Source: a virus (Duplodnaviria > Heunggongvirae > Uroviricota > Caudoviricetes). Taken from it: DNA of 41,569 bases. The stretch is taken from IMG/VR virus record IMGVR_UViG_3300031993_000032; one strand, written 5' to 3'. The notes beneath the pieces are model-generated. The model saw only the letters and a list, made by a program, of their open reading frames with translations. It made no database searches and was not told where the DNA came from. Positions 25,262 to 41,569 of this stretch are shown piece by piece. The stretch's first letter is position 1; every line of letters begins with the position of its first letter. The translations under genes and the position numbers were made by a program.

Positions 25262-25696
25262 TTACTCATTCGGCGCGAGAATCACCTTGAAGAACTTCTG
25301 GTGAACACGCATGAGTTTGTTGTACATACGGTCGCCTTCGTACTTAGCCATGCTATACTTGAGCACGATAGCTGCGGCGAATATCGGATCGTTGTTACTA
25401 GTCGCATAGTGCAAGTAGACGCCATTTTGAACAAGCGTGAGAACACCAACATACTTGTGAGTCTTTCTCACTTCGAGCCAGTTACCGAATCCGTCGGCAG
25501 GGCGCTTCTTGTTCCATCCTTCGTCAAACTCTTTCTTAGTTAGTACACGAAAGTCAGACACGGCTCTGCTATGACGTAGAGACTTGTTGCAAGCGAAATT
25601 GGTGTGGTCGAACTTGGTCTGCATTTCTTGCTTCTTTTGGATATTCAGATCCTTGTTCCATTCGGTAAGATGGCGTTCAAATTCATTGGAAGTCAT
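25262..25696 (-). CDS. Hypothetical protein
   Basis: AAGGAG RBS. Confidence 0.75.
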   Translation of the reverse strand: MTSNEFERHLTEWNKDLNIQKKQEMQTKFDHTNFACNKSLRHSRAVSDFRVLTKKEFDEGWNKKRPADGFGNWLEVRKTHKYVGVLTLVQNGVYLHYATSNNDPIFAAAIVLKYSMAKYEGDRMYNKLMRVHQKFFKVILAPNE

Positions 25697-25720
25697 ATGT
25701 GTCTCCTTGCAAAGTATTGA

Positions 25721-26416: not shown

Positions 26417-26487
26417 GGTAAATCTCCTTTGTATGTGCAATTTTCATATAATGACGAGGCAGTCCCGTACACGGGACCGCCAGTCCG

Positions 26488-26655
26488 TCACTTGAACGTC
26501 TTCTTGGCCAGGTGCGGCTTCCCATCGTCTCCGATCACCGGCCACACGACTTGCTTGCCCTTCGTCACGAAGTGGCAGAAGATGTCCTTCTTGTCTACGC
26601 CCTGTTGTACGAGGGATTCGATGAATTCGTTTGCTTGTGTAGTGTAATCAGCCAT
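26488..26655 (-). CDS. 55-aa hypothetical protein not in the ORF track
   Basis: AAAAGGAG RBS; MADYTTQANEFIESL...HLAKKTFK; stop 3 nt from repeat element. Confidence 0.75.
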   Translation of the reverse strand: MADYTTQANEFIESLVQQGVDKKDIFCHFVTKGKQVVWPVIGDDGKPHLAKKTFK

Positions 26656-26680
26656 AATGAGTCTCCTTTTGTTTGACTAG

Positions 26681-27205
26681 TTACCAGTTTCTTGTAGGTT
26701 CGGTTTCTTCGATGCTTGCAGTTCCTGCGTCATATGCGAGACCATACTTGGACGCATCAACGTCTGTATATCCATTGTCTTCCATATGTTCCTTGGCCGT
26801 CTTGAACAAGGACTCGACTTGTTCATCGGTCACGTCGGACACCAAAATCACATCAACCGGAATACGGTTCCTATATACTTCCTCACGTGCGTAGATGCCT
26901 AGCTGCTGTGCAGCACCAACAATTGCCGAACGGATGCTAGAAATACTGTTGATTGCGTATTGCGGTGCGGGAGCGCCGACATACACGTACTTTATGACCT
27001 TTTCCGGCTGTACGAGGATATGGAGTTCCTTCTTGTTCGTGTCACCGTCATCATTAATGACCACATAGTCTCGTGCGATGTCATGGTCGAAGTCCACCGA
27101 CTGCTCGGCAATTTCAGTGGAATCCTCAAATCGAGTTCCCTCTTCGATTACGAGCACGTCGTAGTTATCGACTCCGATTTCGTCTATTACGTCCTGTATT
27201 GTCAT
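26681..27205 (-). CDS. Acidic hypothetical protein
   Basis: AAGGAG RBS. Confidence 0.8.
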   Translation of the reverse strand: MTIQDVIDEIGVDNYDVLVIEEGTRFEDSTEIAEQSVDFDHDIARDYVVINDDGDTNKKELHILVQPEKVIKYVYVGAPAPQYAINSISSIRSAIVGAAQQLGIYAREEVYRNRIPVDVILVSDVTDEQVESLFKTAKEHMEDNGYTDVDASKYGLAYDAGTASIEETEPTRNW

Positions 27206-27226
27206 GATTAAAACTCCTTTTTAATA

Positions 27227-27255
27227 AATATAACTTTTAAATTAAGTTTTGTCAA
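27227..27255 (-). promoter_or_regulatory. sigma70-type promoter
   Basis: TTGACA-N17-TATATT. Confidence 0.75.
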
Positions 27256-27272
27256 TACTTTTTTACTAAAAA

Positions 27273-27761
27273 TTATTTTCTTGCCTTCTGGCTTGCGGCC
27301 AAGTTAGCGTTCATCACCATGTTGTTCAGTTCGCTCTCGGCGGAAAACATCGTCAGCATGTTCTCGAACAAGTCAATAACCTTGTGAGCAAGACCACGGC
27401 GATCGATGTGCCACAACGCGTCGGCGGGTAGCTGTCCGTCAGCATGGATGCTACGGCTGTCATACATGCGGTAGTTCCACCAGATGGTACCGCTGTCGCC
27501 ACTATACAGACGGATTTCGCTGCCCATCCCCCAAAGGCACAGCTCCTCGTAGACGCCCTTCTTCATAAGCAAGCCCAATCCCTTGCTTGCATAGGAGAAA
27601 TTCCAGAACGGACTCTCTCCCCACTTCTCTACGAACGCCTCAAGACGCTCACGGAGACCTCGGTTGATGTCCACGTCGCCGTAATAGCATGATGCATTGT
27701 CGTGGATGAACATCGTCACCGCATCGTTGCGCTTCTGCATTTCCATGTCGATCGTATTCAT
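27273..27761 (-). CDS. Hypothetical protein
   Basis: GAGGA RBS. Confidence 0.8.
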   Translation of the reverse strand: MNTIDMEMQKRNDAVTMFIHDNASCYYGDVDINRGLRERLEAFVEKWGESPFWNFSYASKGLGLLMKKGVYEELCLWGMGSEIRLYSGDSGTIWWNYRMYDSRSIHADGQLPADALWHIDRRGLAHKVIDLFENMLTMFSAESELNNMVMNANLAASQKARK

Positions 27762-27770
27762 TGGTTCCTC

Positions 27771-28103
27771 CTAGTATTCCTTGATGTCGTAGCCACACAG
27801 AACGTTCATGGCATCCTCGATGCCCTGGTCGATACGTCCGCATGCCTCGGCGACCTCACGAAGGATGTCTTCTGCTTGAGGCTCACGATGGTCAAACTGG
27901 TTCAAGAATGAGCGTTCACAGAGCACTCCCACGTCCGAAGGGTCACGGCATTCGTTCGTCAGCACGAAGTAGCCTTCTTCCGGATGCACCGTTGCCGAAA
28001 CATGTTCGTAGTTGCTAGTGTAGGTCAGCACTCCGTCGGATTCATGATCCCACACAATGCCTTCGGATTCTAGCTTCTTTAGTAATTCGTCTGTGAATTC
28101 CAT
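27771..28103 (-). CDS. Acidic hypothetical protein
   Basis: AAGGAG RBS. Confidence 0.8.
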   Translation of the reverse strand: MEFTDELLKKLESEGIVWDHESDGVLTYTSNYEHVSATVHPEEGYFVLTNECRDPSDVGVLCERSFLNQFDHREPQAEDILREVAEACGRIDQGIEDAMNVLCGYDIKEY

Positions 28104-28205
28104 GTCGATTCTCCTTGTTTTGGTTGTGGTTGATATAAAATGGTAGGGCAGTCCCGCCGTCGGCGGAACCAGTCCTTTGTTGATATACTGTGAATAACTT
28201 GTTGA

Positions 28206-28577
28206 TTACTTGTTCGGAAGTTTCGCGTCCAGTAGACGCTTCATTTCTGCAATCGACTTGGCAGTAATATTCGAGCCTTCAATCGCCCAGAAGTCAGTCG
28301 ATCCGATTCGGGTCAGATTGCCGTTGTGACGGCGAACGATCTCGATACGAACCTTATCTTCCTTCGGATAGAAGTCGATCTCGTAATCGTAGGTCACGTC
28401 GTCGTTCTCGAATATGAGACCGTGGATGAACACTTCTCCGTCGTCATTGGAGTCACAGCTCGGAGAGCCGAACTTCATCCCCTTAAAGGCAGGGAGCAAG
28501 TAAGACTGGATTTCCTTCATGAGCGTCTGGTCGAAGCACTTGACTGCGGACAAAAATTTTATTTCTCTCTGTTTCAT
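28206..28577 (-). CDS. Hypothetical protein, paralog of 36351-36722
   Basis: EIKF...YLLPAF..MKFGSP...GEVFIHG...RRHNGNLTRI...FWAI shared pattern. Confidence 0.8.
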   Translation of the reverse strand: MKQREIKFLSAVKCFDQTLMKEIQSYLLPAFKGMKFGSPSCDSNDDGEVFIHGLIFENDDVTYDYEIDFYPKEDKVRIEIVRRHNGNLTRIGSTDFWAIEGSNITAKSIAEMKRLLDAKLPNK

Positions 28578-28579
28578 GG

Positions 28580-29158
28580 TTAGATCTCCTGTGCTTTAAT
28601 GATTTTGTCGATTAACGGCTTTGCCTTTTTGAGTACAGCTCTCGCTTCGTCCTCACGTTCCTTGGCGGCACCAAGCATTTCTTTGATATCCGCATCGAAA
28701 GCGTCCTGGGCATCCTTGATCGCAGTCAGCGGCGAGAAATAGACTACATAGTCCGAGCTAGATTCGATCTTTACACCTTCAGTTTCCGGCACGTCATCGT
28801 CGTCTGCTCCGTTGAACAAGGTAAACTTGCCTTCCTTGGACACCTTGCGCCATTCAATTTCACGAGTGCGATCGTTCCAGAGAAGGATTGAAGCCGGATA
28901 CTCTTCGGTAGCCTTCGGACGTAACGTGATAAGCTTCTGTGCGGCCTTCTTGAGATTGGCGTCATTCGTCAAGTTGATGAACACGGCCTTGTCCATGTTG
29001 TAGCGGCCTTCCCTGTAGATCTCGCCGAAGGCGCTGTTTTTTTCGGTCTTGCTGTGTTCCACGAAGCGACGGTCAGTCACGCTGTAGATATGGAAATACG
29101 GAAGTCCGGTCATGAAGCTTAATACCGGAATGAGCTTTGCCTTGGAAGATATTAACAT
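28580..29158 (-). CDS. Hypothetical protein
   Basis: AAAAGGAG RBS. Confidence 0.8.
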   Translation of the reverse strand: MLISSKAKLIPVLSFMTGLPYFHIYSVTDRRFVEHSKTEKNSAFGEIYREGRYNMDKAVFINLTNDANLKKAAQKLITLRPKATEEYPASILLWNDRTREIEWRKVSKEGKFTLFNGADDDDVPETEGVKIESSSDYVVYFSPLTAIKDAQDAFDADIKEMLGAAKEREDEARAVLKKAKPLIDKIIKAQEI

Positions 29159-29235
29159 GATTGAACTCCTTTTGATTAGGTTGTGCCCCTTGTATAAGGG
29201 AATAAGGCAGTCCCGTGGACGGGACCGCCAGTCCG

Positions 29236-29994
29236 CTAGAACTTGGTGATCAGTTCCTTCGGCTTCTTAAGGAACTGAATGGACTCGGTGTCACCTCGGT
29301 CGGTAGCCGCCTTGATAGCCGCCTTGATGGCCTGGTCTCTCTGTTCGGCCTTCCAGTAAATCTTGCTAGAAGAATTGCATCGGCGTCCGTAACTGATGAA
29401 GAATCCAGTACCGCCGTGGTTACAGCCCAGGCCGAACGTGGTGTACGTGTACAGAGGTTCTTCCGTCTGTTCCCACAGAACGCCCTTGAATACCACGAAC
29501 TGCTTTACGAGCTTCTTGACTTCGGCAAGTCTTTTCGTGTAGTCGTCTCCGACCACGATGGACTTTTCCAAGTCGAACTGCGGATCGTCCTTCGGCTGTC
29601 CGACAAAGCAGAATGCGGAACGGTTCTGGAACCAGTCAACCTCGTTGGCAACGTGTTCCTTGGGGTTCACGAACGAACGTGCGATTACGGAGCCGTAGCC
29701 GTGACGGACTGGCTTGTAGAGCTTGTTCTTGTAACGGCGGATAGTCTCCGTGAACCACATGCCCCTGCCGCCGTCGCCGTGATGGCAGAGTTCCCAGGCT
29801 TCCTCGTTGTCACGCACCTTCGGCAATACGGTCTGGTAGTCACGCACCTTGTATGCGACTGGGAAATCCCTTTCGTCGAGCACGTCCTTCACGTAGACTG
29901 CATAGTCAATAGAAAGCACTCGGTCACGAACCTTCGTGCAGCGCACGTTCGGATAGAAATACTGTTTGTACTTGAATGTAACTATTACGTCCAT
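29236..29994 (-). CDS. Hypothetical protein
   Basis: AAAAGGAG RBS before MDVIVTF. Confidence 0.8.
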   Translation of the reverse strand: MDVIVTFKYKQYFYPNVRCTKVRDRVLSIDYAVYVKDVLDERDFPVAYKVRDYQTVLPKVRDNEEAWELCHHGDGGRGMWFTETIRRYKNKLYKPVRHGYGSVIARSFVNPKEHVANEVDWFQNRSAFCFVGQPKDDPQFDLEKSIVVGDDYTKRLAEVKKLVKQFVVFKGVLWEQTEEPLYTYTTFGLGCNHGGTGFFISYGRRCNSSSKIYWKAEQRDQAIKAAIKAATDRGDTESIQFLKKPKELITKF

Positions 29995-30063
29995 GGTTAA
30001 TCTCCTTTTGGTTGTGTCCTTGGTATAAGCAGACAAGGCAGTCCCGCAGACGGATCCGCCAGT

Positions 30064-30267
30064 CTACTTGTCGAGATCCTTCGCTATTCCGAAATAGATG
30101 ATGAACGACGGCACTAAGATCTGCACAAGAATCAGCACAATGCCGACAAAGACATCGAATGCGACCTTCTTGTCCAGAGTGTCCATGTACGGAATGAGGA
30201 TGAAAAAGCTGATGGCTAGGCATGCGGAAGCCGCCGCCAGAGATACGAATTTCTTGACAACCTTCAT
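30064..30267 (-). CDS. Small two-TM membrane protein
   Basis: AAGGAG RBS; two hydrophobic helices. Confidence 0.75.
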   Translation of the reverse strand: MKVVKKFVSLAAASACLAISFFILIPYMDTLDKKVAFDVFVGIVLILVQILVPSFIIYFGIAKDLDK

Positions 30268-30276
30268 AATTACTCC

Positions 30277-30504
30277 TTATCCGTATAGTGCTTCGATACA
30301 CTCGTCCAACGAGTCACCACCGCCGACATATGCCCCTTTACCGCAGTCAAAGATACTCCAATGGTCTTCCTGGCGAATCAGCTTGATTAAGGGGTCTGGT
30401 AGCTCGACGATCCGTCCGGATGTCGATTCGTGGACTTTACTGGGGTCAAATTCCACCTTCTGCGCCTTCAGCGCATCTATTACGGTCTGTTCGACTTGTG
30501 TCAT
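30277..30504 (-). CDS. Hypothetical protein
   Basis: AAAAGGAG RBS. Confidence 0.75.
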   Translation of the reverse strand: MTQVEQTVIDALKAQKVEFDPSKVHESTSGRIVELPDPLIKLIRQEDHWSIFDCGKGAYVGGGDSLDECIEALYG

Positions 30505-30530
30505 ACGTAACTCCTTTTAAAGAAAGAAAT

Positions 30531-30581
30531 GCCCCACAGACTTGACAAACGAAAAACTTACTGAAACCAAGTCTATGGGGC
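30531..30581 (-). terminator. 14-bp stem, 23-nt loop, followed by U-rich run (terminator/processing site)
   Basis: GCCCCATAGACTTG...CAAGTCTGTGGGGC-ATTTCTTTCTTT on minus strand, one U-G pair. Confidence 0.55.
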
Positions 30582-30595
30582 ACCCACAGGAAAAT

Positions 30596-31462
30596 TTATT
30601 TCGTGTAGCTGAACTTGTCGGAGCTTCTGTCGTAGCTCCACTCGCCATCGGAAGCGCTAGTCAGCCACTCGGCAAGGTCTGTCTTGTCATCGTCATAGAC
30701 GATTACGGTAGGATGGGCGTACTTGCGGATGTCCTTCTCGGTGTCCACCTCGAAGTAGGCTTTATCCACGAAATCGTCCAGATTCACGATTCCAAAAATG
30801 TTTTCGATGCCGTTCGCCTTGCCGAACTCGTCAAGGAACTTCCTTGCGATCACTTCCTTGTCAACGAGGTCGGTACACCAGACCCAAGAATCCATTTCGC
30901 CAGCTCCACCGGCATAGCGGCCAGAGCTGTACTGGCCCTGTTCCTCGTAGGCGTAAACGTCGATCGTGACATCTGGGTACAAGTGAGAGAGCTTCTCGAT
31001 GAACTCACGAGGCACGTTCCATGCCGTGTCGAAATTGATCACGAGATCGTCTCCGACCCAAGCAAGCCTAGTCTTGCATGCGTCCCACTTCGTGCCCCAG
31101 TTGTCGCAGTTCCAGTCGTACCAGTTGAACACGGTGGCACAGTTGTGCTCCTTGCCGTTCTGGTAACGCGGATCGTCCTTCTGCTGAGGGGCGAAGTTCT
31201 CGAACGAGAACACGTCCTCCTTGCCGAACACGTCGATCATCGGAATGCGGCCTTCCTCGTCCGGAACGATGTCCTTGTAGCGGTCGATAAGGCCGTTCAC
31301 GAGTTCTTCCTTGTAAAGGCTGTTCTTGTACTGCTCTCGGATGTAGTCTGGCACGGACATGCCCTTCGGAACCGTATAGTAAGGCTTGCCCTTCTTGGCT
31401 ATTTCTTCGAGAGTGGATTTGTCGCCCTTGATGACTAGCTGATTATTCACCCAATTCGGCAT
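30596..31462 (-). CDS. DUF1281/YubB-like ferredoxin-fold protein
   Basis: MPNWVNN start, WYDWNCDNWGTKWD and FDTAW motifs; AAGGAG RBS. Confidence 0.75.
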   Translation of the reverse strand: MPNWVNNQLVIKGDKSTLEEIAKKGKPYYTVPKGMSVPDYIREQYKNSLYKEELVNGLIDRYKDIVPDEEGRIPMIDVFGKEDVFSFENFAPQQKDDPRYQNGKEHNCATVFNWYDWNCDNWGTKWDACKTRLAWVGDDLVINFDTAWNVPREFIEKLSHLYPDVTIDVYAYEEQGQYSSGRYAGGAGEMDSWVWCTDLVDKEVIARKFLDEFGKANGIENIFGIVNLDDFVDKAYFEVDTEKDIRKYAHPTVIVYDDDKTDLAEWLTSASDGEWSYDRSSDKFSYTK

Positions 31463-31832
31463 AGTGGTCTCCTTTGCTAGTAGTTTCTGTAACCTTCTCG
31501 CAATCCTCGATATCGTCCAACGGCAGTCCCGTGGGATGCTCGTCAGTCGGATACAGTTCAGCCGTGTGGCTTGCAAGCCAGTCGAGGAACGCCCTCATGA
31601 GGTTGACCTCCTCGGCTGTATAGGCCAGGAACGTGTCCGACATGTTCGGCGTGATGAACGAGAAAAATTTCTTTCCGTCTGGCGTGAAGTAGATGAAAAC
31701 GTCCACCTTGGTGGATCCGTCCCTACTTTCCACGAAGAAGGCTCGGCAAAGGGTGCCCTCTGGGTAAGTTTCCCCATAAGGACCTCTGTCAGCCCTCGCC
31801 AACGGGGTTTTCATCTCGAACTGCATCTTCAT
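31443..31832 (-). CDS. Hypothetical protein containing a repeat element inside its 3' coding region
   Basis: TAATG coupling; element 31524-31548 within the frame. Confidence 0.7.
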   Translation of the reverse strand: MKMQFEMKTPLARADRGPYGETYPEGTLCRAFFVESRDGSTKVDVFIYFTPDGKKFFSFITPNMSDTFLAYTAEEVNLMRAFLDWLASHTAELYPTDEHPTGLPLDDIEDCEKVTETTSKGDHYAELGE

Positions 31833-32353
31833 TAGTCCCTCGCCTTGGTAAAGGGTGACTCGGTGTCAAGCTCGGTGACGGTACGGATGGTAGACTGGAG
31901 AGCGTTGTTGGCGTTCACCAAATTGTCTGCCCTCTCAAGCACCGAACGGATCTTCAAGAAGGCTAGCTCGAAGTCGAACTGGGTCTGGCCGTCAATCTTG
32001 AAGTAGCCGACTGGCATTGTGTAGTCAGTACCCAAGTTGCGGAACACGCTAAGACCATCGGTCATGCGGATGTGTACGGAAACGTGGCGTGTCTTCCTCA
32101 TGAATTCGCCCATGGGCGGAATGGTGAGACATGCGTGGGAATGCTTGGAGTAGATGTACAAGTTCTCCACGCAAGAGCCAGGGTATTCCACGGCCACCTT
32201 CATCTTGAGAGTGTCGGCGGACACCTTCAGCGCATTCGTGAACGCCTTCTTGTCCAAGGTGGTGCGGTCTACGCCGGAGAAGGCTATGAACTTGTCGTCC
32301 TTCAACAGCTTCTTCGTGTCCTTGATTATTTTTTCGAGATTATTGTCAGCCAT
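31832..32353 (-). CDS. Hypothetical protein
   Basis: AAAAGGAG RBS. Confidence 0.8.
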   Translation of the reverse strand: MADNNLEKIIKDTKKLLKDDKFIAFSGVDRTTLDKKAFTNALKVSADTLKMKVAVEYPGSCVENLYIYSKHSHACLTIPPMGEFMRKTRHVSVHIRMTDGLSVFRNLGTDYTMPVGYFKIDGQTQFDFELAFLKIRSVLERADNLVNANNALQSTIRTVTELDTESPFTKARD

Positions 32354-32374
32354 GGTAAAACTCCTTTTGCTATA

Positions 32375-32403
32375 AATATAACTCTTAATTTCGATTCTGT
32401 CAA
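32375..32403 (-). promoter_or_regulatory. sigma70-type promoter in tandem with a repeat element
   Basis: TTGACA-N17-TATATT; AACAGAAAA/TTTTCTGTT inverted repeat at 32402-32426. Confidence 0.7.
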
Positions 32404-32468
32404 CAGAAAAATTAAAATTTTCTGTTATATCTTGAATAAAAAGTGGGCGCAGTCCCGCCGATCACGGA

Positions 32469-33110
32469 TCAGTGGTACACGGCCTTCTTGAACATTTCCT
32501 CGGTCATGCGGTCAAGCAACGCACCGCAAGCCTCCACCCTACCGAAGCACGTGCCGTCGTACTTCTTGCGGAGTTCCTTGCCGTCAGCACCGATACCTAT
32601 ATTGCCGTTCTTCAGCTTGTAGGCGATTTCCTTCTCGCTGATGTCTCGGAATGCGCCTACGAGGTGGCTGTCGTCGTCGGCTTCCCCATACCCAAGGAAA
32701 TAGACGAACACGGACGAGCTGCCCTCGACTGGCTTCTGTCCCACCCAGTAGTGTACATGCTCGTGCATGTAGTCCCCGAACTCCATGTCGGCATACTTCT
32801 TCATGATGGCTCGGACGGCCTCAACGTACTCGCCGTACCGCAAGAGCCATACGGACTTGATGTCTATGCTGACGCCCGCATACGGCATCCACATGTGGAC
32901 TGCGTTGCCTTCCTTCTTCGAGACGGTAAACTCGAATCCGGACACGTTGTACTGCGAAGCCTTCGTCTCGTGGCAACGGAACCTATATTCGAGCTTGCTG
33001 TTATCGTAGCCCAAAGCCAACTGTCCAATCAGCTCACGGATCTTTTCTGCCCCGTGCCTCAAGTAAAGCCTGTCTGGGCTGTAGCCCTTCCTTCCATGTA
33101 CGTGTGCCAT
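32469..33110 (-). CDS. Hypothetical protein
   Basis: AAAGGAG RBS before MAHVHG; stop overlaps the element ACTG. Confidence 0.8.
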   Translation of the reverse strand: MAHVHGRKGYSPDRLYLRHGAEKIRELIGQLALGYDNSKLEYRFRCHETKASQYNVSGFEFTVSKKEGNAVHMWMPYAGVSIDIKSVWLLRYGEYVEAVRAIMKKYADMEFGDYMHEHVHYWVGQKPVEGSSSVFVYFLGYGEADDDSHLVGAFRDISEKEIAYKLKNGNIGIGADGKELRKKYDGTCFGRVEACGALLDRMTEEMFKKAVYH

Positions 33111-33165
33111 ATTATCTCCTTTGGGTTGTGCATTCCCCATAAAGGGGCTAGGCAGTCCCGCAGAA

Positions 33166-33633
33166 CTAGCCGCCAGTCTTCCCCAAGAGTCCGTCAATCA
33201 GCCGCAAGTTGTCCTCTGCGCTCGACAGACAGTCGAAGTCGTGCGGCAATGCGTACAGAATCTGGCCGTCCTCGGCATTCTCCTCGGCATATCCGCATGA
33301 GTCGCTACGCATCCCACTCACCACCGAATCCGTAACGCCTTCGGCAATGTCACGGATGGCACCGCCAGAAGGCGACCATCCCTTCGGAACCCACGAGAGG
33401 TTCACGTATTCACGCTTCTCGCACTTCCAGTAGCGAAGTACAGCCCTTTCCGTCTCCGTCTTCACCTTCTTGAAGATTCTGTACGTGCCGTCATGCAGTC
33501 GGACGATGTAGTAGGCCCTTATCTTGAAATCGTCCGGTATGGCCACGCCGTCCACCAGGAAGGTGTACTCCACGCCGCAAGTCACCATGTTCGTGCAATG
33601 TCTCGGATCGCTCCTCATAAGAAATTCTCCCAT
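33166..33633 (-). CDS. Hypothetical protein
   Basis: Typical codons; ends GKTGG inside the element; start 33633 or 33618. Confidence 0.75.
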   Translation of the reverse strand: MGEFLMRSDPRHCTNMVTCGVEYTFLVDGVAIPDDFKIRAYYIVRLHDGTYRIFKKVKTETERAVLRYWKCEKREYVNLSWVPKGWSPSGGAIRDIAEGVTDSVVSGMRSDSCGYAEENAEDGQILYALPHDFDCLSSAEDNLRLIDGLLGKTGG

Positions 33634-33635
33634 TG

Positions 33636-33797
33636 TTAAAAATTATTTTCACAAGACCATCCCGCCATGCGGCTAGGATTCTCCTCGGTCAGCTTCACCC
33701 AGTCCACCGAAGAAAGCTTCTTCAGCGCACTCATGAACCGCTTCCTACTCTTGGTCTTGCACAGACGTAAAGTCTGCCGACCGTGAGCCTCGCCCAC
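33636..33797 (-). CDS. Possible 53-aa basic protein with atypical start
   Basis: Open frame with typical codons (GEAHGRQTLRLCKTKSRKRF...), but the first GTG is 18 nt from AAGGAG. Confidence 0.4.
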   Translation of the reverse strand: MGEAHGRQTLRLCKTKSRKRFMSALKKLSSVDWVKLTEENPSRMAGWSCENNF

Positions 33798-33895
33798 GTA
33801 GTAGACCGGACCCGACTCCTTGGTTAAAGGTTGTTAGTGTTTCCGTACCCATACATATACGCTAGGTGCAGTCCCGCCCACAGTACAATCAGTCC

Positions 33896-34261
33896 CTACT
33901 CGAACGTGACATCATCAAGGCAGACTCTTTCCCTAGTGTCCACCAAGTAGTGACTCTGGTCATATCGGTTAGTCAAGCTGTCATAGCCCTCGACTAGCCA
34001 CCTAGCGCACAGACCCTCATAGTATTTAGCCAACGAATCTCTGATATGCTCGTTCATGTATTCTTCTATACTATGGTTAGCCGCCCAGTTACCGCACACA
34101 TCCTCATAGTACAACTTCTTTCCGTAGCATATTCTGCTAGGCGCACTTACCCCATCGTCGCTACCGCACCCAGTAAATACTCCACAGCAGAACAGACAGA
34201 ACAGTACAACGAGTACCGTACCTACAACCGATTCCACGATAGTCTTTGTTTCATTATTCAT
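33896..34261 (-). CDS. Putative lipoprotein
   Basis: Hydrophobic leader ending VFTG-C-GSDD (lipobox-like); AAAGGAG RBS. Confidence 0.65.
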   Translation of the reverse strand: MNNETKTIVESVVGTVLVVLFCLFCCGVFTGCGSDDGVSAPSRICYGKKLYYEDVCGNWAANHSIEEYMNEHIRDSLAKYYEGLCARWLVEGYDSLTNRYDQSHYLVDTRERVCLDDVTFE

Positions 34262-34299
34262 AGTTTCAATTACTCCTTTGGAATGTTTTTACCCCATAT

Positions 34300-34914
34300 A
34301 TGCACAGCGGACAGTCCCGCACATAGGTCGGCCAGTCCCAGACTGTCCCCACAGTCCCCAACGGTCGCCCAACGTGGCAAAACGTGGGAAATAGTGGGAC
34401 ATTGTGGATATGTTGACAAAATGTTGATAGAGTGTGATTATAGTGGGAATAGGTATAAAAAATTTTTCCTTGTGTCGTACCTTGGGAACGAGTCGGAACG
34501 CAGACAGAACTGGTAGGCCGTTTGGGGCCTGGCTTGTTCTGAAAATTCCGGACTGGGGGGAAAGGGGCGGTTTCTGTATTAAATAGGCGCACAACGATCG
34601 GTCTGGGGTCTCGCGTGTGTGCCCTTTTCTTTCCCCTTCGGAATCCATGTGGCGAGATGTGCGGTGAAGTTAGCCCAGAGTAAGAAAGTTAGCGAATTTT
34701 GAAACATTCCCTAGATATTGTTTGAAGTGGAGACAAAATCCCAACATAGTGGAAAAGTGTCGAAAATGTTGATAAGGTGTTGATAAGTGTTAATTTTAGT
34801 TTACATAATCAAGGTTATCTCGCCGTGCTCAAATGAGCATTATAAAATGTATGGAAATTATAATAAAAATAAACTATATTTACATATAGAAATAAACCGA
34901 AAACGAGGAATGCT
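34300..34914. other. Non-coding strand-switch region with DnaA-box-like/iteron-like repeats (candidate origin or terminus)
   Basis: TGTTGATAA 34767 and 34778; TGTGGATAT 34403, TGTTGACAA 34411, TGTTGATAG 34422; repeated GTGG(G/A)A; AT-rich end. Confidence 0.4.
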
Positions 34915-35655
34915 ATGTCAACAATAGATTACTATACCGATGATGCCGAACGTACTTATCTAATAAGCCACGTATACCAGACTCCATACTTCGCCCCTGG
35001 TGAATTATCCAAGATTGAAAACTATGCCCAAGCGTTGGCAAATAATTTCGTTGGTTGGGTCATTCACCACAGATTAGAACTGAACCCAGATGGTAGCGTT
35101 AACAAACGTCGTGATGAATTAATACTATCAAACCAGTATTACTATCGTCCGGCAAATGAATTGATCTTTTTAACCAGTATCGAACATGGCAAACTACATG
35201 GGCACTCTATAAAGCCGAACCCCACTATAGTGTCACACGAAACGAGGAATAAACAGAGTAACGCCAAGTTGGTCGCCAATAACACCGAGGAACGTTACCG
35301 AGTAGTTTCTGCGTTGGTGGAGTCTGGCGAACTGTTATGCATGTCTGACTATCAGTTCTACCGTCGGTATTGCCAACGTAACGGCATAGCGTTTACTGGG
35401 GCAAAGGTTGACAAGAGTCATACGGTTAGTCGAGTCGATGTGCCGAAGGTGAATGTAACTAAAAATAAACAAAGTCGAACTGAACGTACTGAAGCTCGAT
35501 ATAAAGATGTCATGGAACGCTTAAATAATGGTGATGTTCTACCGATGAAGGAATTTTCGTTTCTCCGTCGGTATTGTGATAGGCGTCTCATAGACGTTCC
35601 GTCGATCATTATCGTAGACGACGGATTCAAATTAAAAAATATATCTGGCGTGTGA
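34915..35655 (+). CDS. HNH endonuclease with duplicated C-terminal module
   Basis: WVIHHRLE...YYRPANELIFLTSIEHGKLH; repeats TEERY...YQFYRRYC and TEARY...FSFLRRYC; lone plus-strand gene in the array. Confidence 0.7.
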   Translation: MSTIDYYTDDAERTYLISHVYQTPYFAPGELSKIENYAQALANNFVGWVIHHRLELNPDGSVNKRRDELILSNQYYYRPANELIFLTSIEHGKLHGHSIKPNPTIVSHETRNKQSNAKLVANNTEERYRVVSALVESGELLCMSDYQFYRRYCQRNGIAFTGAKVDKSHTVSRVDVPKVNVTKNKQSRTERTEARYKDVMERLNNGDVLPMKEFSFLRRYCDRRLIDVPSIIIVDDGFKLKNISGV

Positions 35656-35718
35656 TCCCATTATTTGGGAAATTTCCGGTCCCGTCGGAAACGTGCCAGT
35701 CAGTCGGCGCTGGAGGCC

Positions 35719-35751
35719 AAAAAAAGCCCCAGGTCCCGAAGGATCTGGAGC
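35719..35751 (-). terminator. Intrinsic terminator (cUUCGg loop)
   Basis: GCTCCAGATCC-TTCG-GGACCTGGGGC-TTTTTTT. Confidence 0.8.
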
Positions 35752-35814
35752 TTTTCCAACCAAGGAGAAAAAAGACTATATAACTGGAGTATGTTCTAAA
35801 CCGATCAACCGCCC

Positions 35815-36345
35815 TTAAAACAATTTATGTAGCTTGAGTTCGTTTTCCGCGATTTGGTCATGGATTTTATTGATTTTGTCCAAGTACTGCTGTTCTCTGT
35901 AGTTAGCAATGACTTTATGGATGAACCCTCTAGGGTCATCCAGGTCGGCCATGGCGCTATCTTTTGTGGACGCTTCCTCGAAGAGGACAGTATCACCTTC
36001 GTCAGCCAGAATCCGGCACATGAGAGCCGGGTTAGGGTCATTCTTGTCAGTATCGACGAATAGTCTTAGGTTTATGATAAGGTCCGGAAGATTAGCGATC
36101 CCTACTATATCGGATTCGAAAATTAATTCGGAGACATTATCGGACACGAACGGAGCGATAGGCGTAGGTCCATCCCCTAGGGCGAGTTTGAGTTCAGTAC
36201 CGAATCTATCCCCATAGGGACACTGTTGGTGCAGTCTGGCAATGAAAAGATCATTATCCAGCGGTTTACCGTTATCCTCTGGGAGTTGTCTGGAATTGAT
36301 CCAAGGGATAACGAGGTTATCTATAAAGGATTTGAGTCTGGACAT
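35815..36345 (-). CDS. Hypothetical protein
   Basis: AAGGAG RBS. Confidence 0.75.
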   Translation of the reverse strand: MSRLKSFIDNLVIPWINSRQLPEDNGKPLDNDLFIARLHQQCPYGDRFGTELKLALGDGPTPIAPFVSDNVSELIFESDIVGIANLPDLIINLRLFVDTDKNDPNPALMCRILADEGDTVLFEEASTKDSAMADLDDPRGFIHKVIANYREQQYLDKINKIHDQIAENELKLHKLF

Positions 36346-36350
36346 GATAC

Positions 36351-36722
36351 TTACTCCTTACTGATAAGGTTGTCGAGGATATGTTTTTGCGCTAGGATAA
36401 CGAGTTTAGACGGGTTATCGGAAGCTATGACCCACAGTCCGTTATCATTGATTCTGGTAATGGTTCCGTTTACGGATCTCATGATATTGATTTTGGTCAC
36501 GTTATCGGCCATCAGGAACGATATTGTATATGAGAACATGACGTTATTCTGGTCATAAACATAACCGAGAATGACGATATCACCGTTTTTGCTTGATTCG
36601 ACCTTAGGAGAACTGAACGACATGTTATCGAACGCTGGGGAGAGATAAGTTTTTACTTGGTTCAAGACCATCTGGTTATAATCGTTGACCTTTTTCATGA
36701 AACGGATTTCGTTTTTATTCAT
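36351..36722 (-). CDS. Hypothetical protein, paralog of 28206-28577
   Basis: EIRF...YLSPAF..MSFSSP...GDIVILG...RSVNGTITRI...LWVI. Confidence 0.8.
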   Translation of the reverse strand: MNKNEIRFMKKVNDYNQMVLNQVKTYLSPAFDNMSFSSPKVESSKNGDIVILGYVYDQNNVMFSYTISFLMADNVTKINIMRSVNGTITRINDNGLWVIASDNPSKLVILAQKHILDNLISKE

Positions 36723-36807
36723 ATAAGCCTCTGGTTGTTAAGTCTTTGTAGGTTATAAGGGACCGAGTCAGTCCCGTTGGAAATGAGTCATTATGGAACT
36801 GTGGCAC

Positions 36808-36840
36808 AAAAAGGCCCCAGTACCCGAAGGTACTGGAGCT
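36808..36840 (-). terminator. Intrinsic terminator (cUUCGg loop), related to 35719-35751
   Basis: GCTCCAGTACC-TTCG-GGTACTGGGGC-CTTTTT. Confidence 0.8.
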
Positions 36841-36863
36841 TTCCAACCACGGAGCATGAAAAC

Positions 36864-37193
36864 TTAAAAGTGTGGAATGTCGGTAATAAGGGTAAGGCTG
36901 TTGACGTACTGCCAAGCCTGGGTCAGAGTACGTTCGAGCGCATTCTTGTTACTGGATAGGTAGGCGGCGTTGAACGGAATGGTTCGGAACAGATCCGGAT
37001 GATGGTTGAAGTGAGCGACCACTCGACCCGGTTCAGCCTTGACAACCACGGATCCATGGTCGAACTCGATCATACCTTCCTCGACTGCGTTATTGAACAG
37101 TTGACGGAAGATGATTTTTTGGTTATCGATACGGTTTTTCTGTTGTTGAGCCTGGTGATGTGCATACCAAGCGATAGGATCCGCGAAGTTCAT
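36864..37193 (-). CDS. Hypothetical protein
   Basis: AAGGAG RBS. Confidence 0.75.
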   Translation of the reverse strand: MNFADPIAWYAHHQAQQQKNRIDNQKIIFRQLFNNAVEEGMIEFDHGSVVVKAEPGRVVAHFNHHPDLFRTIPFNAAYLSSNKNALERTLTQAWQYVNSLTLITDIPHF

Positions 37194-37217
37194 GTAAAAG
37201 CTCCTTATGGTAACAGT

Positions 37218-37424
37218 TTATGGGGTTACTCCACTGGTTCCAGTGACTTTTGTGTCTACGGAAACGGCACGGTTTGCCAGATCCGGATATTGGCCTTTGA
37301 ATGTATCGAGAGCCAGGGTTCTGGCCATAGACTTTGCCAAGTCGATCGACGGAGCTTCGACATTATTGATATGTACATTTACTTTGACGGTGATTTCGAC
37401 GAGAGTGGATAATACTTTAGCCAT
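37218..37424 (-). CDS. Hypothetical protein
   Basis: CAACCAAGGAG leader. Confidence 0.75.
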   Translation of the reverse strand: MAKVLSTLVEITVKVNVHINNVEAPSIDLAKSMARTLALDTFKGQYPDLANRAVSVDTKVTGTSGVTP

Positions 37425-37514
37425 GATGGATCTCCTTGGTTGTGTGTGCCCTTAGTATAGGTGATGCATGCAGTCCCGTGGGGAACGTGCCAGTCCCTGG
37501 TCGGCGGAGGCCAG

Positions 37515-37547
37515 AAAAAAGCCGAGACGGAGATCATCCGTCCCGGC
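37515..37547 (-). terminator. Intrinsic terminator
   Basis: GCCGGGACGG-N7-CCGTCTCGGC-TTTTTT. Confidence 0.8.
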
Positions 37548-37557
37548 CAACCAGGGA

Positions 37558-38006
37558 GCTACAGAAAAGTGTAAGATCTTCTCGTGACTGACTCGTCTGG
37601 GCGAGCCGTCTCCCAGTCACTCGATACTCGGCGTTGGACATCTATCGCCACATCGCTACCGAGCATGAAGATTTTTTTTCGTGGTCTGACCAAGTCGAAC
37701 ACGAACCGTTATCTGAAACCTACCTAAATCTACCAAGAGATAGACCTATGTGATTTCCTACCTTGCTCGTTGCCGAGTAGGCCGTAACGGCACTTAATCA
37801 ACCATATCTACGCGATATTCCTAATATGCATCAAGCAATATGGCTGACTTGCCTAGTCCTACTCCATTGATGGAGAGCCTTAACACGGTCGGCATATCAA
37901 ACTAGACATGAGTAAATATAGTTCAATCGTTATCTATTTTCAATAGCAGATTTAAGTATATTTAGTTAAATTTTGTTAACATTTGTGACTGCAGTCGGTT
38001 ACCCAT
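37558..38006 (-). pseudogene. Promoter-to-terminator unit with no intact ORF (decayed gene or ncRNA)
   Basis: RBS plus 14-aa ORF MGNRLQSQMLTKFN (37962-38006); distal protein-like frames joined by a frameshift at an A8 run (37672-37679) end at TAG next to the terminator module. Confidence 0.4.
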
Positions 38007-38078
38007 GATTAAATCTCCTTGATTGGTTGTGCCGAATGAATAAGCTGGCGAGGCAGTCCCGCCAGCTGGCGGACAGTC

Positions 38079-38633
38079 CTACAGTTCCGTCTCGATAGTC
38101 CACTTCGTCCAGACGGGCCAGGTGTTCGGCGACTCCGCGCACTTGGTCTGGAGCAGCATTTTCGCCGTGGGGAACATGATACCGTCAGACTCTTCCTTGT
38201 ATGCCTCGGCGAGCCTCTTGAAGTCGTCGATGACAAACTGGATCGCCTCGCCGACGGTGGCGCAAATCTTGACAAAGGAACGGAGATCGCCGTTCTGGTT
38301 GTCATACTGTGCGCCGTGGACAGCAACGAAGTTGCATTCGTGTTCCCAGACGGAGCAGTCGATGTAGTCGCCGCCAGTGGTTTCAAAGGACACGCTTTCG
38401 GTCGTCTCTCTGATGGCAGCCAGCAGTGCTTCGGTGTCGTCCAGATCGCCCTCGAACATCTTGCCGTCGAAGTAGACGTTTTCCAGACGGCTTCTGAAGT
38501 ACTCGTCTTCCTCGATCTTCTTACGTGCCCAAGCGTGAAGCTCGTTGATGGCTTCCTTCTCGACTGGATACATATCGACGGATTCGGCGGTTCTGTCGTC
38601 CTGATGGAAAATAATCAAGCTAAACTGTTTCAT
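38079..38633 (-). CDS. Acidic hypothetical protein
   Basis: Follows element 38689; stop abuts element 38054. Confidence 0.8.
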   Translation of the reverse strand: MKQFSLIIFHQDDRTAESVDMYPVEKEAINELHAWARKKIEEDEYFRSRLENVYFDGKMFEGDLDDTEALLAAIRETTESVSFETTGGDYIDCSVWEHECNFVAVHGAQYDNQNGDLRSFVKICATVGEAIQFVIDDFKRLAEAYKEESDGIMFPTAKMLLQTKCAESPNTWPVWTKWTIETEL

Positions 38634-38714
38634 TTCTGATCTTCTTGATTGGTTTGGTTGGTTGTGTAGAATGAATAAGACGGCGGAGCAGTCCCGCCGT
38701 CCGGCGGCCAGTTC

Positions 38715-39074
38715 CTAGAGCTTCTCGATCTTGTCTGAAACGGTCATCAGCGCCTTGTAGTCTGTGCCGCCGTCGAGATCGGCGATATCGTTGATGTACT
38801 TGCTGAAGAAGTATTTCAGCCAATCGGCTTCACGCTGGGTGAGCTTAAGGGTCTTTGTCTTGAGTTGGTCTGCCTTATCCAGCTCGATAAAATTCTCGTC
38901 GAAGAACTTTCGGCTCACTTTAGTTGCGTCTAGGTACATTCCGGATATAAGCACTTTTTCCGGGTCATTAAATACCCAGAGACAGGTATATCGGTTGCCC
39001 TTCTTAATCTTGACACCGCCCAGACCTTTGGTATGGGTAGCGACGTAAATTCTAGATACTACAGGTATTGGCAT
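38715..39074 (-). CDS. Hypothetical protein
   Basis: CAACCAAGGAG leader before MPIPVV. Confidence 0.8.
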   Translation of the reverse strand: MPIPVVSRIYVATHTKGLGGVKIKKGNRYTCLWVFNDPEKVLISGMYLDATKVSRKFFDENFIELDKADQLKTKTLKLTQREADWLKYFFSKYINDIADLDGGTDYKALMTVSDKIEKL

Positions 39075-39168
39075 GGTTGATCTCCTTGGTTGAGGTTTGT
39101 ATGGAATAAATATTATCTGAAAGCAGTCCCGTCGGTTCTTTACCAGTAGCCAGGTGCGGCTGGCAAAT

Positions 39169-39197
39169 AAAAACTGGGCGGAATTGCTTCCGCCCAG
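39169..39197 (-). terminator. Intrinsic terminator (GCAA tetraloop)
   Basis: CTGGGCGGAA-GCAA-TTCCGCCCAG-TTTTT, perfect 10-bp stem. Confidence 0.85.
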
Positions 39198-39222
39198 CAA
39201 CCAGGGAGTTAAAAATTATTTT

Positions 39223-40014
39223 TTAGTGGTCATGGCAAGCGATAACCTTGACCTTGCTGTCAATGCATAGTCTGCAGTTCTCGCAGTGCGACTTGGGATC
39301 GGGGTTGAGCTTGGCTTTGCCAGTTTTACCGACTACCAGGTAGGCAGGGCAGTAGCACTTGGTAGGCAAGCACATATCCACGCCGTCATCGAAGACGAAT
39401 GCCTTGACGTTCGGCAAGTGAGAATATTTTTTGTAGGCTTCGACGCCCACGTCGTGCCAGACCGAGAACAAGATCGTGAAGTTGGGCGGCACGTCGCCGT
39501 TTTCGAGGAATTTTCCCACGATATCGTACATTTTCGTGTACAGATAGAACTTGGTATCAGGGAAACGGATCGCAAGGCGGCACCACATGGCCATTTGGCG
39601 TTCGTTTTCGAGTTCGCCAGACTGGTTGATACGGGCGATCTTGACGTGGCGGCGTTCGATCTGGTTGGCCAGATCGGCTTCGACCTTCTTGAGTTCGTGA
39701 CGGAGACCCCAGGTGTTGATTGCCTGGGACTGGACGACTCCAGGGAAGCGGTAGGAAGCTCTGACGTAGCAGCTCTTCTTACAGGCGCTGCAGTTCTTGC
39801 AAGTGCCCTTGATACCTTCGAGTTCGTCGTTGAGACCTTCGTAGGTGTAGTCGCCGAGCAGCGTAGACCACGTGGCGATACGGCCTACCTTGATGTTGCC
39901 AGCGAGACTGAAGCCGTAGGTGTGAGCCTTGGGATCGAAGGTATAGCGTTCGATTCCGTTGGGCGTGACCGTCTTGGTGTCTTCGTGGAACAGTTTCTTA
40001 GATTCTTTAGCCAT
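39223..40014 (-). CDS. Gp88-like protein (radical-SAM-related Cys cluster)
   Basis: GNIKVG, GTCKNCSACKKSCY, RINQSGE, FYLYTK, terminal CENCRLC motifs. Confidence 0.7.
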   Translation of the reverse strand: MAKESKKLFHEDTKTVTPNGIERYTFDPKAHTYGFSLAGNIKVGRIATWSTLLGDYTYEGLNDELEGIKGTCKNCSACKKSCYVRASYRFPGVVQSQAINTWGLRHELKKVEADLANQIERRHVKIARINQSGELENERQMAMWCRLAIRFPDTKFYLYTKMYDIVGKFLENGDVPPNFTILFSVWHDVGVEAYKKYSHLPNVKAFVFDDGVDMCLPTKCYCPAYLVVGKTGKAKLNPDPKSHCENCRLCIDSKVKVIACHDH

Positions 40015-40100
40015 AATGTAGCTCCTTAGGTTGAATTGGCTTTGTGCTTAAATTATATCAGAAAGGGGCAGTCCCGGAGAACTGCCGCCAGTTTCCAGAA

Positions 40101-40646
40101 CTACTGAACCTTCATGCCAAGCTGTTTAGCAGCGGCAATCAAGCATCGCTTTTGCAATTCAGCATTGAATGTATTAAAGGCGGCCTTGATTTCCTTGACT
40201 GTATGTACTTCGACCTCATCTTTAACTTCGACATCATCAAAGTCGCTGGACACGTACAGTATACAGAGTTCGCATTTGGTCTCGCCAGAATCATGTCTGG
40301 TCAGACGAATTGTGAAATCATACCGGTTATATTCAGCGCTCAATTCGAGCTTGGTGTCATACAGCCCATGGAAAACTCGCTTCGTCAGATTATTGACGCA
40401 ATCGGCATACTCTTCAAACACCAGTAGATTCAATTGATCCACGCATGACTCGACAAAATTCAAGTCACGATCGGTATTGAACACGTCCGGCAATCTATAC
40501 GGTTCATCGAAATCCAGATCGCTTGGATTGATTTCAGACATCTTGTCCAGGAGTACCTGGAGGATCGGGTCGAACGGTTTGGCTACCGGCTTGACGGCGG
40601 CCTTCTTGGTAGTCTTCTTGGTGGATTTCTTGATAGTTGTTTTCAT
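40101..40646 (-). CDS. Hypothetical protein with Lys/Thr-rich basic N-terminus
   Basis: CAACCAAGGAG leader; MKTTIKKSTKKTTKKAAVKP. Confidence 0.8.
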   Translation of the reverse strand: MKTTIKKSTKKTTKKAAVKPVAKPFDPILQVLLDKMSEINPSDLDFDEPYRLPDVFNTDRDLNFVESCVDQLNLLVFEEYADCVNNLTKRVFHGLYDTKLELSAEYNRYDFTIRLTRHDSGETKCELCILYVSSDFDDVEVKDEVEVHTVKEIKAAFNTFNAELQKRCLIAAAKQLGMKVQ

Positions 40647-40722
40647 AAAAACTCCTTGGTTGATTGTATAGGGGAAATAACCCGGCTAGGCAGTCCCGCA
40701 GGGCTGCCGCCAGTTTCCAGAA

Positions 40723-41205
40723 CTACTGATAGAGACAGCTGTTTCTGTCAATGAGGGTCACCAGGTGTTCTCTGGAGAGAGGCTTCGTGAAGCTCATGAC
40801 TTCTGTGGCATTGAGTCCCTCGGAGTCGTCAACCGACAGCTTGCTGGGGATAGCCGTCAGCTCGTAGTCACCAGTGGTGTCAATCGCCAGCTTGTAGCCA
40901 GTCTCCTTGAGGGCGGCGAACAGCGGCTCGGCAGCCTTCTGGAGCTTCTCAATCACACTGCCATAGTTGACGCCGAGCAGTGCCTCTGCACGAGAGGTGA
41001 ACGGGCCGTTCACCTCGGACACGACCCAGTCGTCAGTGCGTACGGACGGACACAGCTTGTGTGCGTACTCAATTGCCAAGTTGTTGAACTCCTCAGAATG
41101 CGTGTCGTAGTCGGTCTCCACGCCTACCCAGATCTCAGGGCTAGCGACCTGTCCTGAAGGAACAACCTTGCTGGAACACAAAACAAAATACTTGGACTTT
41201 TTCAT
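40723..41205 (-). CDS. Hypothetical protein
   Basis: AACCAAGGAG leader. Confidence 0.8.
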   Translation of the reverse strand: MKKSKYFVLCSSKVVPSGQVASPEIWVGVETDYDTHSEEFNNLAIEYAHKLCPSVRTDDWVVSEVNGPFTSRAEALLGVNYGSVIEKLQKAAEPLFAALKETGYKLAIDTTGDYELTAIPSKLSVDDSEGLNATEVMSFTKPLSREHLVTLIDRNSCLYQ

Positions 41206-41287
41206 GATTAACTCCTTGGTTTGGGTGTATAGGGAAAATAACCCGGCAGGGCAGTCCCGCCGGGTATCGGCCAGTTCCTAGACTGTA

Positions 41288-41506
41288 TTAATCGCACTCC
41301 TTGACAAGTTCCTTGAGTTTCTTGCCAGCGGCTGCCATTCCGTCTTCGTCGTCTTCGGCGACGGCGTCGTCATAATCATTGAGCGCAGCCCTCACCTTCT
41401 GACGGAATTCTTTGTCCTTGGTAGCCTTGGCGTCGAGCTTCCAAGCATCGCCGTAATCAATTTCCCCAGTAAGCTGGGCTACGTCTTCGAGTCTGGATTC
41501 AAACAT
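41288..41506 (-). CDS. Small acidic hypothetical protein
   Basis: CAACCAAGGAG leader. Confidence 0.8.
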   Translation of the reverse strand: MFESRLEDVAQLTGEIDYGDAWKLDAKATKDKEFRQKVRAALNDYDDAVAEDDEDGMAAAGKKLKELVKECD

Positions 41507-41569
41507 TGTTAATCTCCTTGGTTGATTGTGTGTAACGGAAATAACCCGGTAGAGCAGTCCCGTGACTGG

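Follow-up and report, generated by a model that had tools for sequence, protein, structure and literature searches.

The window analysed here is a 41,569-nucleotide (nt) stretch of a virus of the class Caudoviricetes (IMG/VR record IMGVR_UViG_3300031993_000032), and the minus strand carries every gene from about 22.3 kb onwards. About 24 of the window's genes are headed, in one orientation, by a repeated promoter-like module of roughly 70 nt, the tail of which is a leader with the Shine–Dalgarno (SD) sequence; exact copies of this leader, CAACCAAGGAG, stand directly before start codons. The distal part of the array holds four U-tract terminators, each with a short box complementary to the leader just ahead of its hairpin. 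These anti-leader boxes, their conservation in relatives and the pairing they may support are our subject.

The initial annotation had reported such a box on the transcribed strand before every U-tract terminator of the array, and both positions and sequences hold at all four (Table 1). As the minus-strand array from 22.3 to 41.5 kb has no further canonical U-tract terminator, the count of four out of four is valid. The boxes lie in the 3′ untranslated region (UTR), between a stop codon 9–47 nt upstream and the terminator hairpin, with a gap of 0–5 nt to the hairpin, which is GC-rich and followed by a run of T. The leader that they complement, likewise claimed from the start, is exact at 37432, 39082, 40652 and 41514, and the variants said to head the units are indeed there, leaders with one or two mismatches being found at 36728, 38015, 40022 and 41212. 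The pattern CAACCANGGAG has 8 matches in place of the 0.06 expected, none of 100 shuffles gets to 8, and the four antisense-leader copies coincide with the four terminators. The conserved box proved slightly longer than first described, AACTCC-N-TGGTT(G).

Box T1 is predicted to form duplexes of about −21.5 kcal/mol (ΔG) with canonical leaders, and the central base of its orthologues is G. Its terminator, the last of the array, faces a convergent plus-strand open reading frame (ORF; 34915–35655); behind this terminator lies a degenerate, leaderless module. The flank holding box T2 scores z = −4.8 to −5.1 against shuffles, and this box is kept in a relative (L121:13890; L numbers denote sequences from relatives); box T3 has orthologues in L157 and other loci. 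We rejected a coding role for the opposite strand, as plus-strand CAACCANGGAG has no usable start codon or ORF after it at any of the four sites, as well as pairing of the box with the sequence just 3′ of the terminator (GACCAGGGACTGG), which is good at 37548 alone and not general.

Table 1. Boxes, terminators, leaders and promoter-like modules of the distal array (bp, base pairs).
Feature	Position	Strand	Sequence and remarks
Anti-leader box T1	35757–35767	−	CTCCTTGGTTG; perfect complement of canonical leader
Terminator T1	35719–35752	−	Hairpin GCTCCAGATCC-TTCG-GGACCTGGGGC, U-tract
Anti-leader box T2	36844–36854	−	CTCCGTGGTTG; 9 nt past stop codon of ORF 36864–37193
Terminator T2	36808–36839	−	11-bp stem, TTCG loop, U-tract
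Anti-leader box T3	37548–37558	−	CTCCCTGGTTG; closes unit 3 (38015 down to 37548), which has no intact ORF
Terminator T3	37513–37548	−	12-bp stem, U-tract
Anti-leader box T4	39198–39208	−	CTCCCTGGTTG, extended form AACTCCCTGGTTG; 14 nt past stop codon of GP88-like gene 39223–40014
Terminator T4	39166–39198	−	Stem GCTGGGCGGAAGC..CCGCCCAG, U-tract; stem covaries in orthologues
Variant leader, unit 1	36728–36738	−	CAACCAGAGGC
Canonical leader/SD, unit 2	37432–37442	−	CAACCAAGGAG; exact match
Variant leader, unit 3	38015–38025	−	CAATCAAGGAG; compatibility with box T3 kept through U·G wobble
Canonical leader/SD of gene after terminator T4	39082–39092	−	Exact match
Variant leader, GP88-like gene (unit 4)	40022–40033	−	CAACCTAAGGAG
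Canonical leader further upstream	40652–40662	−	Exact match; same terminator-free run as box T4
Canonical leader, further regulon member	41514–41524	−	Exact match
Promoter-like module between terminator T4 and next leader	39093–39165	−	ACTGG box, CGGGACTGC core, −10-like element
Equivalent module	~37443–37512	−	
Equivalent module	~36739–36807	−	

Among 10 ORFs scanned against PHROGs (the unit genes and the convergent ORF), the GP88-like protein alone was matched, to families of unknown function, and the other nine had no match. Megablast of the array against a phage collection returned no match, and a loose core-pattern scan of IMG/VR, which yielded single chance matches only, was replaced by protein-anchored searches. 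The relatives considered here are a 348-kb IMG/VR contig with a GP88-like gene 89% identical to that of the window, and 38 metagenomic loci with GP88 relatives at 44–94% identity. Gene content around the units differs between the window and these relatives.

The place of the box before terminators, on which the initial annotation had staked its case, is conserved in the relatives. Across the window, the 348-kb contig and the 38 loci, sense-strand CTCCNTGGTT has a GC hairpin within 0–6 nt in 42 of 44 distinct contexts, and the two contexts without one are both in coding sequence. At least 15 unrelated hairpin sequences stand behind these boxes. In 10 orthologous GP88 3′ regions (71–94% protein identity), AACTCC[C/G]TGGTT is almost unchanged, whereas both its neighbours differ: the AU-rich spacer upstream is variable, and compensatory substitutions in the terminator stem give at least four stem versions. 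What does not carry over from the window array is the generality of the claim that every U-tract terminator has a box. Among the 17 true terminators in 36.6 kb of the 348-kb contig, a flank complementary to initiation regions precedes 4, and the other 13 have ordinary flanks, mostly 0–8 nt past a stop codon. The regulon zone of this contig has about 50 leaders between 236 and 286 kb and only four sense-strand box copies, clustered in a syntenic stretch; three precede terminators, and one precedes a hairpin without a U-tract, just past a 121-nt aberrant transfer RNA (tRNA)-like RNA.

The box is one member of a wider class. For 123 dereplicated terminators we compared the duplexes that the preceding 18 nt form with initiation regions of the same locus against those of shuffled flanks. 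About 30 of the 123 terminators form a discrete flank class with z from −2.5 to −6.8, the remainder being centred on 0. The class takes in boxes unlike the first, namely CCATAG(G/A)TA(A)GCTCC, found behind the second GP88 paralogue, and CCATAGGTAGCTCC, CCATATTAACTCCT, CTATCTAGCTCCCT and TTGCCTCCTT. All of these alternative boxes retain CUCC next to the hairpin, and they complement the SD, spacer and AUG side of the initiation region, not the upstream leader side. The boxes also track the SD flavour of their clade: of the 272 initiation regions of clade I, 8% contain GGAGG, and CCTCC is present in 0 of 20 boxes, whereas clade II (L173–L175) has GGAGG in 73% of 49 initiation regions and CCTCC in 3 of 3 boxes, a comparison involving only 2–3 sites, two of them orthologous. 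One clade II box is a perfect 10-nt complement of AAGGAGGCAA. About one third of initiation regions are canonical.

Anti-SD words are otherwise avoided on the sense strand of the arrays. CCTCC occurs 3 times in the window against 14.1 expected and 8 times in the relative against 30.8, and CTCCT 4 times against 15.2 and 15 times against 33.1, respectively (z from −3.0 to −4.0 for these anti-SD-like pentamers). The boxes are thus retained against the background. The depletion is three- to five-fold in the window (22270–41569, minus strand) and two- to four-fold in the relative (236–273 kb), and AGGAG is about two-fold enriched in both arrays.

Because the alternative boxes complement SD, spacer and AUG, because the box tracks the SD flavour, and because such anti-SD words are avoided elsewhere on the sense strand, the boxes are better accounted for by RNA pairing with translation-initiation regions than by DNA inversion. 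In the latter, which the initial annotation had also proposed, leader and anti-leader would be recombination sites that invert a terminator–promoter segment or ORFs (an inverton), or would be the ends of mobile cassettes. Inverted repeats of 11 bp do bracket the units and the 120-bp terminator–promoter junctions, and composite terminator/promoter cassettes, termed PeSLs, mediate shuffling in T4-like phages (PMC2839356, PMC4122927). No flipped configuration was found in about 40 loci from many samples, though, with sense-to-antisense counts of 473:8 for cores, 277:1 for leaders and 56:2 for boxes, the single antisense leader being the perfect box of the window itself. Alignment showed all 12 junctions to be collinear, about 50 leaders against only 4–5 boxes per genome is unlike terminal repeats, the alternative boxes do not repeat the leader, and no recombinase was noticed nearby. 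With orientation and junctions fixed in this way, we regard inversion or mobility as very improbable.

Further variation was seen behind the GP88-family (PF17338) genes. In relatives there are two such paralogues about 16 kb apart and roughly 48% identical (window 39223–40014, minus strand; L122:10001–10768); they contain numerous invariant Cys and His residues, and the anti-initiation-region box behind one differs from that behind the other. Four loci (L158:4307–4400, L159, L181 and L185) have a hairpin insertion of about 55 nt (GGTCTTACTGGAGTT..AACTCCAGTAAGACT) between the stop codon and the box; it is found behind both paralogues, is followed by a second copy of the gene's last bases (GACCACTA / ACCATTAA), and looks like a small mobile hairpin element with a target-site duplication. 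In a relative of 58% identity, one arm of the GP88 terminator stem itself (AACCTGGGGG) is leader-like, and the other (CTCCCAGGTT), with which it pairs, is anti-leader-like (L176:2228–2257). Where GP88 homologues are 54–58% identical (L173–L175, L177 and L193), a conserved structured element of about 60 nt replaces the simple box between stop codon and terminator, with a long hairpin, CTGGCGGCCGG..CCGGTACCGCCAG, containing GGTTCA.

Aberrant tRNA-like RNAs of 117–121 nt lie inside a module-headed unit at L121:12682–12802, L169:8864–8980 and L162:5812–5932 (Rfam tRNA, 36–52 bits); ARAGORN did not call the one in L121, which stops about 14 nt before an anti-leader box. The window counterpart, unit 37558–38010, has no ORF and no RNA match, and its last ~135 nt alone are homologous to the stretch just after the L162 tRNA-like RNA. 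Rfam and ARAGORN gave no family for the box, the hairpin or this non-coding unit.

Upstream of the leader, the module comprises GGACTGG, about 12 nt, CGGGACTGC, a −10-like TTATAC or TGATATAAT, and GCACAACC..AAGGAG with about 7 nt to the ATG, and the CGGGACTGC core often tops a hairpin with covarying arms. Judging by −10-like elements such as TGATATAAT, the module is probably a promoter; as transcription would then start near the junction of GCAC and A, the leader would fall within the first ~20 nt of the primary transcript. Directly behind the terminator comes the next module with its leader at three of the four sites in the window. Within the module, a spacing of about 21 nt separates two direct GGACTG boxes, and the second tops a hairpin whose arms covary between copies (window 22300–41569; L121, L122), and the relative mostly has CGGGGCTGCC, with a 3-nt CTG loop, where the window has CGGGACTGCC. 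Some modules have an extended −10 (TGATATAAT) or a full inserted sigma-70-like promoter (for example, window 32403–32375 and 27255–27227; L121:13994–14022). From the strength of the AAGGAG(G) sites, the host may well be SD-dependent.

We then asked where the box would pair, structural support being thermodynamic prediction throughout. The folds of full transcripts suggested by the initial annotation place the box on its own 5′ leader in four full-length terminated units, with mean pair probabilities of 0.89 (box T2 with the unit 2 leader at 37432), 0.84 (box T3 with the variant leader at 38015), 0.73 and 0.58 (box T1 with the variant leader at 36728, a partial helix of 6–7 bp). In a 1.5-kb transcript begun further upstream, box T4 prefers the canonical leader at 40652, with a mean probability of 0.88. 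Scrambling the box raised predicted SD accessibility from 0.20 to 0.54, 0.22 to 0.39 and 0.15 to 0.35, and duplexes of boxes with canonical leaders reach −15 to −21.6 kcal/mol, compared to −8.5 for a 16S-like anti-SD. When initiation regions were ranked as partners of the non-generic boxes, the own gene's region came 1st of 28 and 1st of 31 for the CTATCTAGCTCCCT box, 2nd of 23 for the L168 variant box CTCCATGGTT (own region CTATGGAGG), and 8th–10th of 21–46; the next gene's region was not the preferred partner. The type 1 box was generic in this test, and box and leader of this type are invariant in orthologues. Orthologues of the CTATCTAGCTCCCT box, which overlaps the stop codon, had no informative variation. 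We rejected reciprocal regulation of the two GP88 paralogues: in the relative, the best target of the group 1 box is the group 2 GP88 initiation region, and this was not reproduced in other genomes.

On this evidence we favour, at a probability of about 40%, a model in which the box is an RNA element of the short 3′ untranslated tail that folds back in cis on the terminated transcript. After termination, the 3′ box (AACUCC-N-UGGUU) would pair with the 5′ leader and SD (CAACCAAGGAG) of the same messenger RNA (mRNA), forming a helix of 4 + 6 bp around a central mismatch. Because the box abuts the terminator, this helix of about 10 bp could stack on the 11–12-bp stem, making about two helical turns. 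The ribosome-binding site would thereby be hidden, limiting translation from each finished message, and mRNA decay may be altered too. In-vivo pairing, action in cis rather than in trans and lowered translation are what we infer from these patterns.

A related geometry arises in read-through RNA. If the box closed onto the next gene's SD only in RNA that has passed the terminator, the next gene would be translated only from its own promoter. Such silencing logic has been described for the T4 genes e, soc and I-TevI. In RNA from stop codon to next start codon, minimum-free-energy and centroid folds indeed place the box on the next leader at 39198/39082 and 37548/37432, as does the RNAalifold consensus of the junction RNA in 9 of 10 orthologues, and three of the four window terminators have the requisite module and leader directly after them. 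The junction at 36844 folds otherwise, however, such that geometry and fold agree at 2 of 3 internal junctions; T1 (35757) and L121:15816 have no downstream leader; and in L166 and L168 the junction is retained and the box absent. As pairing partners, the initiation regions of next genes reach middle to low ranks; for the non-generic boxes, the own gene's region stands clearly above them. As most module junctions are without terminator and box, polycistronic read-through is evidently tolerated, and a read-through silencer seems to us quite unlikely.

The box might instead work in trans. In the isolated 3′ fragment it is predicted to be mostly unpaired (probability unpaired 0.53–0.76), and box, hairpin and U-tail could form a small stable fragment that pairs with the shared leader of about 50 regulon mRNAs. 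Cleavage in the AU-rich upstream stretch, or 3′ processing of the tRNA-like RNA, would release the fragment, and the class would be switched off as transcripts build up. The anatomy, an AU-rich tract, a 5′ seed and a hairpin with U-tail, is like that of 3′-UTR-derived small RNAs (sRNAs), and the type 1 box fits the generic leader, not one specific gene. Unit 3 of the window is non-coding yet closes with box and terminator, and in relatives a box lies about 14 nt past the aberrant tRNA-like RNA, whose 3′ processing could free it. UCCC-motif sRNAs that target SD sites are known from Staphylococcus aureus (PMC2790875). That the non-generic boxes best match their own gene fits cis action better, however, and the central mismatch would hurt a bimolecular duplex more than an intramolecular one; we consider a trans-acting 3′-end RNA unlikely. 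So too, in our estimate, is its regulon-wide form, a self-timed shut-off in which each terminated transcript would release, or act as, a generic anti-leader RNA that titrates the shared leader and SD of about 50 huge-phage genes as it accumulates, with box types aimed at different subsets of initiation regions. If true, this shut-off would be an RNA-only functional analogue of early mRNA inactivation by T4 RegB.

Several observations weigh against cis fold-back, and some of them favour a box with no pairing role at all. Over 47 contexts the central base of the box is C in 25, G in 15, A in 4 and T in 3; it is usually mismatched to the leader's A, so pairing is not maximised. The orthologues in L166 and L168 lack exactly the box, as a clean indel, and retain the terminator and next module, so the box is dispensable in these lineages. 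Own-versus-swapped comparison within the GP88 paralogue family gave no covariation (−14.6 versus −13.8 kcal/mol), and the GP88 gene's own leader is never canonical, so that own-leader pairing would be weaker there, except in transcripts begun further upstream. SD accessibility is predicted to drop modestly, about two-fold; equilibrium folding favours end-to-end pairing generally and ignores co-transcriptional translation; and the clade II match depends on those few sites. The covariation in relatives that the initial annotation had called for is mixed, present in the box and SD flavour match between clades and in the L168 variant, and absent from the flat GP88 matrix.

Without pairing, the box could be a terminator-context element recognised by a protein, for example a phage factor for termination or antitermination, or a DNA-binding protein with leader DNA as a further target, the complementarity being incidental; or it could be the relic of an inverted leader duplication hitch-hiking with terminators. 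Besides its absence from two lineages and the absence of own-versus-swapped covariation, the strict 0–6-nt adjacency to the hairpin, which pairing does not need, is consistent with this view, as is a centre that behaves as a true N, with T, the sole pairing base, the rarest, so that the box looks like two half-sites. Such a role leaves unexplained why unrelated boxes also complement SD, spacer and AUG, why box and SD flavour match between clades, and how the box persists where anti-SD words are generally avoided; conservation across relatives of 71–94% protein identity with drifting flanks speaks against a neutral relic. We judge an element of this kind improbable, and give it the same weight as the trans-acting RNA. 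Of the RNA-level options first proposed, a 5′–3′ lock in cis or an anti-SD RNA in trans, both gain indirect support from box conservation, at least 15 unrelated hairpins, independent boxes, the SD-flavour match and the folds.

The nearest known system to the cis fold-back that we favour is the 5′/3′-UTR interaction of icaR in Staphylococcus aureus, where the 3′-UTR motif UCCCCUG pairs with the SD of its own mRNA (Ruiz de los Mozos et al. 2013, PMC3868564). Both have a pyrimidine-rich anti-SD motif in the 3′ UTR that complements the SD of the same mRNA (here CUCC-N-UGGUU), with blocked initiation and possibly an RNase III substrate as the predicted outcome. The icaR example concerns one bacterial gene whose 3′ UTR is long (>100 nt) and for which the effect has been shown experimentally, whereas the phage case is known from sequence and predicted folds, its tail is 10–50 nt, and its box abuts the terminator hairpin, recurs at several units and fits the leader of dozens of genes, with sister boxes aimed at other parts of the initiation region. 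As the whole regulon has one common leader, the icaR-type fold-back would here have been made generic. In Bacillus subtilis, anti-SD-like 8-mers hundreds of nucleotides downstream pair with the ribosome-binding site and repress expression (Gill et al. 2025 preprint, PMC12697547), and a 5′/3′-UTR interaction is described for hbs (PMC5737220). Those words inhibit initiation, promote decay and are depleted from genes, the same depletion that we see here, but they represent a general constraint or synthetic insertions, whereas the phage word is extended to 11–13 nt, conserved and placed at terminators. This positioning implies selection for the word, not against it.

In type I toxin mRNAs (hok, with fbi and tac, and aapA1), pairing of the 5′ and 3′ ends keeps the full-length mRNA translationally inert. 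These mRNAs differ in being gene-specific, in requiring 3′ trimming for activation and in having an antisense antitoxin RNA; we saw neither of these partners here. CpxQ/SroC and the P1 c4 RNA are examples of base-pairing sRNAs, and share with the phage tails a C-rich, SD-targeting seed on a terminator hairpin with U-tail. The same holds for the S. aureus Rsa RNAs (PMC2790875). The phage seed, by its position, precedes the hairpin on the 5′ side as a linear stretch and is not in a loop. PeSLs (PMC2839356, PMC4122927) likewise are repeated terminator and promoter units that punctuate arrays of small accessory genes in large phages, and the direct succession of terminator and promoter-like module, with promoter activity presumed, is seen at three of our four sites. 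They are described as recombination hot spots, and their definition is not known to include an SD-complementary anti-leader. We found no published account of phage anti-leaders placed before terminators.

Only a handful of cases are known in which a bacterial 3′ UTR pairs with the ribosome-binding site of its own mRNA. Huge-phage gene arrays appear to apply this principle through an element that is repeated, conserved and diversified, located at terminators and tuned to the leader of dozens of genes; this element also offers natural evidence for the recently reported selective pressure from long-range anti-SD sequences. If the proposal is true, a CUCC-containing box that abuts a terminator and complements the local translation-initiation consensus would serve as a search signature in uncultivated phages, and synthetic gene-expression limiters could be assembled from such compact parts. 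Control of timing or dosage in large phages could then be hard-wired into mRNA ends, with no regulatory protein.

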